Below are positions 41,303 to 44,146 of a stretch of 64,000 nt of DNA, one piece after another. This DNA is from a virus: IMG/VR virus record IMGVR_UViG_3300050509_000438, positions 1 through 64,000 of that record; one strand, 5' to 3'. The notes below the pieces were generated by a model, which saw only the letters and a program-made list of their open reading frames with translations, was not told the DNA's origin and made no database searches. Both the position numbers and the translations under genes were made by a program. Numbering within the stretch: the stretch's first letter is position 1; each line of letters begins with the position of its first letter.

Positions 41303-41658
41303 CCTACACTCCTCGCTATCCTCGCATATCTCTCCTCATGGTTGCGTCCATGAACCAAGACAACTCCTTGTCCATTCAGGTCGCCGCTCTTCAGTGTCTC
41401 CACCTCCTTGTAGGTGATCACCTTGATAATATCACCATCTATTCTGGTGATGATCACGCGCACTCCATGCCGCAGCATTAGAATGTCGTGCTTGTTCAGT
41501 CCAACCGGACTCTCAACCCGTAATGTAAGGTCGTAATGATACAGCTTTGGCTTCTCTTTGTCGAGCCTGCCGAATCGCTTCCATACACTCTGCCAGAAGG
41601 TAAGCTTGGGAGTGAGTGGGTAAGCCCGCGTGATGATGGAGGAGGTGATCGTGATCAT
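41299..41658 (-). CDS. Hypothetical protein, 119 aa
   Basis: Coupled ORF. Confidence 0.45.
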   Translation of the reverse strand: MITITSSIITRAYPLTPKLTFWQSVWKRFGRLDKEKPKLYHYDLTLRVESPVGLNKHDILMLRHGVRVIITRIDGDIIKVITYKEVETLKSGDLNGQGVVLVHGRNHEERYARIARSVG

Positions 41659-42881
41659 TTGCGTATGATTACTTTTGAGTCTTCAAATACATCCGTACCG
41701 TCGATTTCCGCATCGCACTTGGATAAAAATAAATTGATCCAGTACTGGATAGCGTCGATGTATTCCGGACGACCTTGTGCATCGACCACAGGCTTCTTGC
41801 TCTTATCTCGCTTCTGGATGCCAGGAAAATCAGGATGAGACATGCAGTGATAGATGATTGTCGCGAGTGCTTTTGGTACCTTCTTAGGATCATTGAACTT
41901 GAGCACATACTTCACTGGACCTGTCTCCATGCCGGGAACTTGCGTTGCAGCCTGCTCCGCAAATGAATTGCTCATCTTATCGAGTGATGCTTGCGTCTCG
42001 ATCTCAAGTTGTTGTTTCTTATTCTGCTCCGCAATCTCAGCCTCTCTGCGTGCCGCTTCCTGCTGTGCCTTGCGTTTCTGCTCAAGCTCAAGCTTCTCCA
42101 GTGCCTCTTTGTCGTCGGCAAGTTTCTTCCGCTCGAGCATCTCCTGCTTCAGGTCGGGTATCTTTGCGCGCCATGCGTTGATGATCGGGGTGCATTGCTC
42201 CATGACAACAGTGTTCCATTTGTCGAATGATTCCTGTTCAATAAGATCCTTGTACCATGCAGCCATCGCTTCATCTCGTTCATACTTACTGGGTAAGAAG
42301 CATGCTTCCCAGTCCTCTGGCTTGAGCTTAGGCTTCATCTTCTTGTAGTCCTCGGCACGCTTGTCGAAGTCATCAGGTGTCGACGCCGCGAAATACTCAG
42401 CCGATCCGGTCTCCGCCTTCCTGACCTTTTCCGTAACCAGATTATTGAGCGCCTTCAGGATACCGGTCTTCAGGTCTACCAGGTAGTTCTCACGTTCGCG
42501 CTTTCTGGCAGCCTCGGCCTCAATCGCTTTTTTCTTATCAAGTTCGCGCTGCTTATAGGCAGCAAGAAGACCGCGAAGGCGGTTGTACTCATTGTCCTTC
42601 TTGGACTTGTAGTCGAATGGGGAGATCAGCTCTCGAGCTTGATCAAGGATGGACTCTACCGGCTCGGCAAGCTTTCGATACAGCGGGTAGCTGACATCGT
42701 CGTAGGTGATCTTGAGGCGCGCACAGAGTGTCTCTACCTCAGAGTACTCATCTTCGCTCTCCACTTGCGTTACCGCTCGCGTAACAGCCAGTGCTTTGTC
42801 GTGGCTGCTGCGCAACTTTGGGATGATAGTCTTGAGGTCCTCGATATTGAGTTGAGGAAGGCTGTTGGTTTCTTCGGTCAT
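41655..42881 (-). CDS. Coiled-coil protein, 408 aa (recombination-module accessory)
   Basis: Long K/E/A/Q-rich helical regions. Lies between the tRNA-like gene and the downstream recombination genes. Confidence 0.5.
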   Translation of the reverse strand: MTEETNSLPQLNIEDLKTIIPKLRSSHDKALAVTRAVTQVESEDEYSEVETLCARLKITYDDVSYPLYRKLAEPVESILDQARELISPFDYKSKKDNEYNRLRGLLAAYKQRELDKKKAIEAEAARKRERENYLVDLKTGILKALNNLVTEKVRKAETGSAEYFAASTPDDFDKRAEDYKKMKPKLKPEDWEACFLPSKYERDEAMAAWYKDLIEQESFDKWNTVVMEQCTPIINAWRAKIPDLKQEMLERKKLADDKEALEKLELEQKRKAQQEAARREAEIAEQNKKQQLEIETQASLDKMSNSFAEQAATQVPGMETGPVKYVLKFNDPKKVPKALATIIYHCMSHPDFPGIQKRDKSKKPVVDAQGRPEYIDAIQYWINLFLSKCDAEIDGTDVFEDSKVIIRK

Positions 42882-42940: not shown

Positions 42941-42960
42941 TTAAAAAACCTCTTTGGTTT
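42941..42960 (-). terminator. Weak intrinsic terminator immediately after the tRNA-like gene
   Basis: On the minus strand: AAACC-AAAGA-GGTTT followed by TTTAA. Confidence 0.4.
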
Positions 42961-42963
42961 ATG

Positions 42964-43120
42964 AAATAGTAGAAGGATTCGAACCTTCAATCCCGATTCC
43001 TTTATTGCTCAGTCGGGAAATCCACCTTATCAAGTCATGAGCAAAAGGCCTCACGCAGTCAACGCTTCGGCACTCATATAGACCATTTGTGGAGGCGTAT
43101 ACCAATTCCGCCATACTATT
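42964..43120 (-). tRNA. Atypical class-II tRNA-Leu-like gene, 157 nt, with oversized anticodon region and variable arm; no CCA; anticodon not identifiable
   Basis: Acceptor AATAGTA/TACTATT. D-arm TGGCGGAATTGGTATACGCC resembles tRNA-Leu. T-arm GAAGG-TTCGAAT-CCTTC. TCCAC/GTGGA stem encloses 64 nt. Variable arm TCCCGA(16 nt)TCGGGA. Confidence 0.45.
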
Positions 43121-43192
43121 TACCATGAGGTGAACGGCTTCCCCCTCACGAGTCGCCGTTCCGTGAGCACCCGCCTGGTGCCCGACTCTGAG

Positions 43193-44146
43193 TTATGTAA
43201 AAGGAACCTGATCGTCCTTTTTTGTTTTCTTCTTGCCGCCGGTCACCTCCGGTTCATATACCTCGCCGGTCCGCTCGTTGACATCAGCGCGGAACTCGGC
43301 TGTCTCACCTTGCGCCACCAGCGTCGGGTCAGCTACCTCCTCCTGCTGCGCCGGCAGATCAATGGTCTTCTGTTCTTCTTCATCCGGAGCCTCATACTGC
43401 TTATACAGGATCACTGTATCCGGCTGCTTGTACTCCACCTTGAACACATAGTTGATCACGCTCTTCTTAGCCGCCTCGCCGTAGTGCTGCTGCCAGAGCA
43501 TGCCGCCTTCCTTCATCTGGCTTTTGGATCTTCTGATTTTGAGTTCCTCCAGTGTCAGCATGTAATCGCTTGACTTGCCATCAGCCCAGTCTACCGTAAC
43601 GTACACCGCCATCACGGTCTCTTCGCTGGGCCTTGGTACCGGGAATGACATCTCGTGCTTTGTGACGAGTTTGAGTTTTGGGTTGTATGAAAACTGATCT
43701 TTATTGAAGACCAGCACGGGGTCGTTGACACGCTTGATGGTTGTCATGCGCTCGAGCATCTCTTTTTTTGCAAATGGATCGGGATCAACCTTCATCATCT
43801 GCTTCCAGCTACCGTCCTTCTGCTTAACTCCTTGCGGACGCAGATACAGCTTCTCCGGCGAGACACCATAGGAACCGACCTTGACGAAGGCGGCAAAAAT
43901 AGAGAAGGGATCACATTGCATGAGCTCCGGGTTGGCATTCACCTTCTCCATGAAGGCGAACACATCGCGCTCATATTTCGATGCACCATCTTCGCGCGTG
44001 GTGACAGCCTGGTAGTTCTGGATGTAGCGGTTCTTGATCGCGTCGATCGCCAGAAGGTCTTTTACGTTCTTGGCGGCTGAAATCTGCTGCTCAAGAGCCT
44101 TGATCGGATTTGTTTTCTGTATTTGAGTTTGGTCTGCCATTGTCAT
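43193..44146 (-). CDS. recT: RecT-family single-strand annealing protein, 317 aa
   Basis: CDPFSIFAAFVKVGSYGVSP...LYLRPQG and LWQQHYGEAAKKSVINYVFK parallel the E. coli RecT blocks as recalled. Confidence 0.65.
   Translation of the reverse strand: MTMADQTQIQKTNPIKALEQQISAAKNVKDLLAIDAIKNRYIQNYQAVTTREDGASKYERDVFAFMEKVNANPELMQCDPFSIFAAFVKVGSYGVSPEKLYLRPQGVKQKDGSWKQMMKVDPDPFAKKEMLERMTTIKRVNDPVLVFNKDQFSYNPKLKLVTKHEMSFPVPRPSEETVMAVYVTVDWADGKSSDYMLTLEELKIRRSKSQMKEGGMLWQQHYGEAAKKSVINYVFKVEYKQPDTVILYKQYEAPDEEEQKTIDLPAQQEEVADPTLVAQGETAEFRADVNERTGEVYEPEVTGGKKKTKKDDQVPFT

Follow-up and report, generated by a model that had tools for sequence, protein, structure and literature searches.

A probably non-decoding, tRNA-Leu-shaped RNA gene of the T5 RNA1 kind downstream of recT in a phage genome

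The DNA analyzed here (64,000 nucleotides, hereinafter the window) comprises positions 1 to 64,000 of the IMG/VR virus record IMGVR_UViG_3300050509_000438, a 78,415-bp record with direct terminal repeats. The genes surrounding the RNA element under study are all on the minus strand, and the RNA gene occupies the 311-nt gap that separates recT from a gene for a 408-aa protein, inside a same-strand operon and immediately after the recT stop codon; a PDDEXK exonuclease-like gene is found further downstream of the 408-aa gene. The features of the locus, listed 5' to 3' along the minus strand, are the following:

43193-44146, minus strand: recT (Pfam RecT and phrog_148), the upstream gene, on the same strand as the RNA gene
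43121-43192, minus strand: GC-rich structured leader between the recT stop and the RNA gene, with two hairpins (fold z = -3.09)
42964-43120, minus strand: tRNA-Leu-shaped RNA gene, 156 nt plus the discriminator U, probably non-decoding and of the T5 RNA1 type
43114-43120, minus strand: acceptor 5' strand AATAGTA, 7/7 Watson-Crick pairs with 42965-42971
43095-43111, minus strand: D-arm of the class II tRNA-Leu type with G18 and G19, columns invariant in the class alignment A2
43021-43093, minus strand: anticodon-arm position, with a 5-bp TCCAC/GTGGA stem that closes a 63-nt folded payload
43089-43093 and 43021-43025, minus strand: the two strands, TCCAC and GTGGA, of the anticodon-position stem
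42989-43020, minus strand: enlarged extra (variable) arm of 32 nt, with a 6-bp stem and a 16-nt loop
42972-42988, minus strand: canonical T-arm GAAGG-TTCGAAT-CCTTC
42965-42971, minus strand: acceptor 3' strand TACTATT, followed by the discriminator U at 42964
42941-42963, minus strand: weak hairpin and then a T run, 3' of the RNA gene, read from the sequence
41655-42881, minus strand: gene for the 408-aa protein, function unassigned, downstream of the RNA gene; its position is kept in relatives

Counting and coordinate mapping bear out the acceptor stem (7 of 7 Watson-Crick pairs), the T-arm (located at 42972-42988) and the variable arm (6-bp stem and 16-nt loop, 32 nt in total) of the original prediction, which had described a tRNA-Leu-like gene at this site. 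The resemblance of the D-arm to tRNA-Leu holds as well: the D-arm 19-mer TGGCGGAATTGGTANACGC occurs once in the 64-kb window, against 0.00 occurrences expected by chance, and is identical to a Bacteroides tRNA-Leu gene at 18 of 19 positions. The anticodon-position stem TCCAC/GTGGA is present as described; the length that it encloses is 63 nt rather than the 64 nt given originally. The cloverleaf is the unconstrained minimum-free-energy fold (166 nt folded). The element has the core features of a tRNA, namely a 7-bp acceptor, a UUCRANY-type T-loop on a 5-bp T-stem and a G18/G19 D-arm, and it keeps the 12-bp acceptor/T-stem stack, the GG D-loop, the T-loop UUCGAAU and the universal core bases that were checked (U8, G18, G19, T-loop). 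Each of its five helices is perfect, and the added RNA takes the form of helices that lengthen existing arms. The 63-nt payload folds with z = -2.24, 5 of 200 shuffled sequences folding equally well. No relatives of this exact payload were detected in the collections searched, including an exact-pattern scan of viral contigs, and blastn against the phage collection gave no match; the predicted payload helices therefore follow from folding energy only (z = -2.2).

The flanks of the RNA gene are structured as well. The upstream 70 nt (43121-43190), described originally as rich in stems, indeed fold strongly (z = -3.09), and the interleaved CTCACG/CGTGAG segments of this leader could form a candidate pseudoknot. 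The leader recurs once among the relatives described below, 5' of the second tRNA-like gene of L126, where 1 of the 6 pairs of the candidate pseudoknot, which is known from these two copies only, is lost and uncompensated. The leader has no Rfam match, HDV-type ribozymes included (E <= 10), and no match in viral contigs by exact-pattern scan. Extra copies of the leader motif in the phage's own genome were dismissed as chance matches within coding DNA. Theta ribozymes adjoin the 3' ends of phage tRNAs, and a descriptor for them has been published (PMC10879173); by eye, the nested double pseudoknot of such ribozymes (P1, P2, P3, P1.1, P4) does not seem to fit the leader, the candidate P1 strands being only 5 nt apart with no room for P3, so that an HDV-like or theta ribozyme appears unlikely here. 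On the 3' side, the weak terminator noted originally is there as an AACC/GGTT hairpin with six T, but a standard terminator scan does not call it. A promoter scan revealed no sigma-70-type promoter belonging to the RNA gene. An ATG-initiated reading frame of 55 codons (minus strand, 42959-43126 of the window) spans the entire RNA gene; most likely, this frame is a by-product of the RNA sequence and is not to be annotated as a protein.

In its default mode, ARAGORN finds no tRNA or tmRNA in the window and no ordinary tRNA or tmRNA in the whole phage, and the element is the sole tRNA-type gene of this compact genome. No Rfam family matches the element at the gathering score (29 bits for tRNA), and in a search at E <= 10 the Rfam tRNA model matches the T-arm alone (14.4 bits, E = 4.8). 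Both tools had been proposed originally as a check on the element; only the intron mode of ARAGORN reports it, with a 'Gly(CCC)' loop that is forced from the extra arm, whereas default ARAGORN and Rfam at the gathering score make no call. The same intron mode predicts a 'tRNA-SeC with a 104-nt intron' at positions 65442-65634 of the genome (minus strand), outside the window, which we consider spurious given its poor stems and AT-rich sequence. Under the standard code, the structural half of the phage genome is fully open; stop-codon recoding was rejected on this ground, and there is thus no call for a suppressor tRNA.

The assertion that no U33-anticodon-purine loop can be placed in the element stands, for an intact loop as well as for one restored by a single excision. 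All combinations of the first a and the last 7-a bases of the 63 nt inside the TCCAC/GTGGA stem were tried and none yields a loop with U33 and purine 37; nor is there an intact Leu-type stem-loop elsewhere in the middle region of the element. A decoding class II tRNA-Leu (RF00005) was accordingly rejected, the stem closing 63 nt instead of a 7-nt loop and the default finders being silent. Genes for Ro60/TROVE, RNA ligase (PF09414), RtcB and CCA-adding enzyme are all absent from the phage. No group I intron, other intron or ribozyme family of Rfam matches the element at E <= 10; a group I intron, the P3-P9 core of which is usually at least 200 nt, was rejected given the 63-nt insert, the lack of an Rfam match and the lack of a restorable loop. 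A bulge-helix-bulge or heal-and-seal intron fails on the same lack of a restorable loop and on the absence of RNA_ligase and RtcB from the phage itself, which leaves a phage-borne cut-and-seal route unsupported. The 'intron-containing tRNA' of the original prediction is hence not supported: a single excision never restores the loop, 63 nt falls well below the length of group I introns, and the phage lacks ligase and RtcB. A tmRNA was discarded too, pair 3-70 being U-A and not G3-U70 and default ARAGORN detecting none, as was a YrlA or Y RNA, with no Rfam match, no TROVE gene and an RNA that ends at the acceptor. A role as a decoy or sponge, also suggested originally, is conceivable, but one directed at anticodon nucleases would be difficult to reconcile with the missing anticodon loop. 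Antisense targets of the payload in the phage's own genome were limited to chance-level matches of 9-11 nt.

A search pattern derived from this element (the 14-mer of the D-arm and the 11-mer of the T-loop, 95-125 free bases apart) matches at least 116 viral contigs. Among the 117 matches listed, 83 are closed by an acceptor of 6-7 of 7 pairs, each of these being one unit of 137-167 nt; closure of the whole span by the acceptor implies a single unit and not two adjacent tRNAs. Of the listed matches, 77 pair at 7/7 positions and reduce to 57 unique units that fall into 43 payload clusters. Acceptor pairing in this set was a selection criterion and so is not evidence by itself, but the three outer pairs of the T-stem, which lie outside both the pattern and the filter, show 100% pairing by various types of base pair and covary. 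In one payload cluster, two pairs show compensatory changes (UA/AU/GC at one and AU/GC at the other). One and the same scaffold, for example AGTCAGG...CCTGACT, bears many unrelated payloads; no motif common to all payloads of the class was found, and the predicted payload architectures differ across the class, so that one common function is not assured. Anticodon loops appear at the frequency of shuffled sequences: among 59 units, intact Leu anticodon loops number 1 (0.35 in shuffles) and split ones 2 (3.0 in shuffles), and any canonical anticodon arm is found in 4 of 57 payloads, compared with 2.65 in shuffles. In bacteria (one genome per species), the 133 pattern matches are mostly adjacent tRNA pairs and include just 7 single long units; the four bacterial units that can be named come from short MAG contigs of Bacteroides, Parabacteroides, Rhodothermaceae and Neisseriaceae.

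A covariance model, R1, was built from 41 representatives of the class. R1 matches the element with 60.5 bits (E = 3.5e-13), its sole match in the window, a score that is partly circular since the class was seeded with the D-arm and T-loop of this very element; acceptor closure, T-stem covariation and viral enrichment are independent of the seed. Three of the four complete class-bearing phages contain one long R1 match, and the fourth, a 341-kb phage, contains three of differing lengths. The class is thus widespread, enriched in phages and usually present in a single copy per phage. Many of its members sit within tRNA arrays and not between protein genes. The literature that we searched yielded no description of the Leu-scaffold class as such. 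As a side observation, the viral contig L004 (positions 10-707) carries three consecutive over-length tRNA-like genes, two of which have a common acceptor and T-arm, with a 42-nt D-loop insert and an anticodon-type loop UUUAUGA in the middle one.

Reports of stable tRNA-like RNAs in phages T4 and T5 date back to the 1970s-80s. The rna1 gene of T5 (AY543070, 30501-30644, 144 nt), annotated in that record as 'tRNA-like stable RNA with unknown functions', is matched by R1 over its full length with 37.5 bits (E = 2e-8). Like the element, T5 RNA1 has a Leu-type D-arm (in T5, GGAAUUGGUAGACG), a 7-bp acceptor, a GAAGG/CCUUC T-stem and a discriminator U, and it folds in the same manner, with a stem at the anticodon position that closes a long insert and a hairpin in the extra arm. 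The payload sequences of the two are unrelated; T5 RNA1 belongs to a large coliphage tRNA cluster, whereas the element is a lone tRNA-type gene after recT, and the stability of T5 RNA1 is an annotation of its record, whereas the element is known here from its sequence. Judging by the model score and these shared features, the element belongs to the R1 class, and so does T5 RNA1. The suggestion that it is a 'tRNA-mimic ncRNA' is the one interpretation in the original prediction that gains: the core is intact, the anticodon loop is absent, and the element fits the Leu-scaffold class that includes T5 RNA1. We accordingly favor the reading, with a probability of about 0.65, that the element encodes a stable RNA of the T5 RNA1 kind, built on a tRNA scaffold and without a decoding function. 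Two further tRNA-like stable RNAs are annotated in T5, rna2 (L283:4960-5084) and rna3 (L283:5878-5950); RNA2 has a canonical T-arm and acceptor on a different body, and R1 matches its T-arm only.

Other known RNAs resemble the element in part. T4 species 1 RNA (rnaC, 139 nt) is likewise a stable phage RNA that combines a canonical T-arm with one very long arm and an additional hairpin, and is encoded beside tRNA genes; unlike the element, it lacks a Leu-type D-arm and has a weak acceptor, and R1 gives it 21 bits, mostly from the T-arm. The ends of YrlA RNA lie in its Ro-binding stem and not at the acceptor, where the element ends. In other respects YrlA, a non-decoding bacterial Y RNA that is also found in phages, is similar to the element in having tRNA-like D and T arms (PMC4201824). 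T4 rnaC and rnaD have been described as 'RNAs of yet unknown functions' (PMC9697503), and bacterial tRNA mimics are the subject of a 2026 preprint.

The possibility that the element is a decaying, functionless tRNA-Leu pseudogene with acquired insertions, which the original prediction had also raised, has some points in its favor, namely the missing anticodon loop and the rejection of the element by standard tRNA finders, the discriminator U in place of the A73 that is kept in 34 of the 41 class representatives, and the payload without a homologue in the collections searched. A degenerating gene is hardly expected, however, to show five perfect helices with the checked core bases kept, or added RNA that prolongs the existing arms as helices, or to be maintained as the lone tRNA-type gene of a compact phage genome; moreover, the same design is found in dozens of phages, where stems covary, and in a T5 RNA annotated as stable. 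We therefore consider decay to be highly improbable.

Searches of viral contigs with the single RecT sequence and with the 408-aa protein retrieved no relatives; a search with a RecT alignment yielded three distant loci in metagenome contigs and none in genome contigs. The relatives compared here are contigs L118-L130 and L154-L156, which were reached by way of RecT homologues (40-91% identity). In ten related phages, the gap after recT is long and contains other insert-bearing tRNA-like units, this element being present in none of the ten; even the closest relative, with 91% RecT identity, carries different cargo in the gap. The region downstream of recT is, then, a variable RNA island. R1 scores 42.5 bits on L125, and the Rfam tRNA model calls tRNAs in three relatives despite their inserts (L121, 51.9 bits; L126, 32.1; L119, 30.9). 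In L118 (2647-2752) and L126 (4360-4465), tRNA-like genes share an identical 35-nt insert, located between the 5' strand of the anticodon stem and the loop AUUUAAC; the intron mode of ARAGORN reads both as tRNAs with a putative UUA anticodon in that loop, and two compensating changes distinguish the anticodon stems of the two. The same mode assigns a UUC anticodon and a 36-nt insert to L121. A GAAA tetraloop caps the anticodon-position arm in L120, as a four-base loop does in L119, and L156 carries a normal tRNA-Glu. An exact-pattern scan of viral contigs with the 35-nt insert gave no match.

These relatives bear on the notion that the element is the precursor of a decoding tRNA from which one or more unconventional introns are removed, in the manner of the 'enigmatic introns' of Lak megaphage tRNAs (Devoto et al. 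2019), which are short anticodon-region inserts identical across phages (PMC6784885). Short phage tRNA inserts that lack an explanation are thus on record, the 35-nt insert of L118 and L126 resembles the Lak inserts in being identical in different phages, ARAGORN restores 7-nt loops in L118, L126 and L121, and Rfam scores L121 as a tRNA. In the Lak genes, however, both the anticodon and the intron are assigned by a tRNA finder, whereas the element has no restorable anticodon loop: no split of its 63 nt yields U33 and purine 37, and across the 59 class members restorable Leu loops do not exceed the number in shuffles. The extra arm is enlarged too, so that two separate excisions would be required. 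There is no group I match, the phage encodes neither RNA ligase nor RtcB nor CCA-adding enzyme, and RNA ligase (PF09414) is present in just 1 of 10 class-bearing viral records. On balance, a pre-tRNA appears improbable for this element.

The position of the gene lends itself to yet another explanation, that the element works chiefly in cis: shaped like a tRNA, it would serve as a cleavage signal which, together with the leader, divides the recT transcript from the genes downstream and determines their stability, with the RNA itself as a by-product. The element lies directly after the recT stop in a same-strand operon where no sigma-70-type promoter of its own was found, and in relatives a tRNA-like unit of one kind or another occupies this junction, its sequence varying freely. 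Against it, the more distant relatives L130 and L155 have a gap of about 135 nt without a tRNA-like unit, a mere cut site needs neither a 63-nt folded module nor an enlarged extra arm, and many class members are located in tRNA arrays instead of between protein genes. We regard a predominantly cis-acting role as quite improbable.

Several additional RNA features were observed at the recT-downstream site of the relatives. A composite that flanks the tRNA-like unit is conserved in most of them (L119:3962-4214, L121:3964-4250, L125:2335-2638, L129:1596-1882 and others). Its upstream leader of about 85 nt (CCAGGGCGGAGGG ... GUNAAACCAC ... UGUAGAAAAGUC) contains a covarying helix, and its downstream trailer reads CAAAUGCCAACGUUCUU; the terminator hairpin has a conserved loop that includes GGCAU, complementary to AUGCC in the trailer, and a pseudoknot is possible. 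The leader/trailer composite has no Rfam match, and the trailer motif gives chance matches in coding DNA alone in an exact-pattern scan of viral contigs. Three relatives have an extra ORF-free stretch of about 170 nt directly after recT (L126:3934-4100, L127:3499-3665 and L128), with a hairpin whose stem reads CCGGG/CCCGG in one phage and TCGGG/CCCGA in the others, a compensating change.

If the element is indeed a tRNA-scaffolded stable RNA of the T5 RNA1 kind, it would probably be transcribed with the recT operon, given that no promoter of its own is seen. By analogy with tRNA maturation, host RNase P would cut the 5' end at position +1 and a 3' tRNA-end nuclease would release the RNA after the discriminator, and the product may persist as a stable RNA, L-shaped and unable to read codons; by analogy with T5 RNA1, full-length RNA would be expected to accumulate. 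The scaffold would provide processing and stability, and the variable payload would be the working part that binds a protein or an RNA. The same design logic is familiar from the 'tRNA scaffold' chimeras of Ponchon and Dardel, in which a foreign structured RNA reportedly replaces the anticodon arm and the cell processes and stabilizes the product; these engineered scaffolds are artificial, and the likeness is an analogy of design and not family membership. Leucylation of this element is doubtful because its discriminator is U and not A73, the base found in most class members; with A73 in 34 of the 41 representatives, charging of some other members is conceivable. LeuRS, like the Ala, Ser and Pyl synthetases, does not read the anticodon (PMC11028032). 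A broader and distinctly speculative extension is that the Leu-tRNA scaffold serves phages as a general display frame, in which a phage-specific structured payload targets the host in trans, perhaps by serving as a decoy or sponge of a defense or RNA-handling protein, the scaffold guaranteeing processing and stability and A73 members perhaps being leucylated without an anticodon.

The design of T5 RNA1, that is, a Leu-tRNA body without an anticodon loop and with an interchangeable folded payload, is thus common in uncultured phages and strongly enriched in viral over bacterial sequence. The class supplies comparative data on the old question of the function of the stable tRNA-like RNAs of T4 and T5 and gives a reason for the genetic study of T5 rna1; if true, the display-frame extension would give RNAs of the T5 RNA1 type a function. 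For annotation, the class accounts for over-length 'tRNAs' that standard finders miss or mislabel as intron-bearing. Among the minor observations on other class-bearing viral contigs, those at L047:9217-9291 and L037:1757-1828 comprise a type II hammerhead ribozyme (45.5 bits), located just 5' of two long Leu-scaffold units, and, in another contig, a match to the Bacteroidetes FopS sRNA (66.7 bits).
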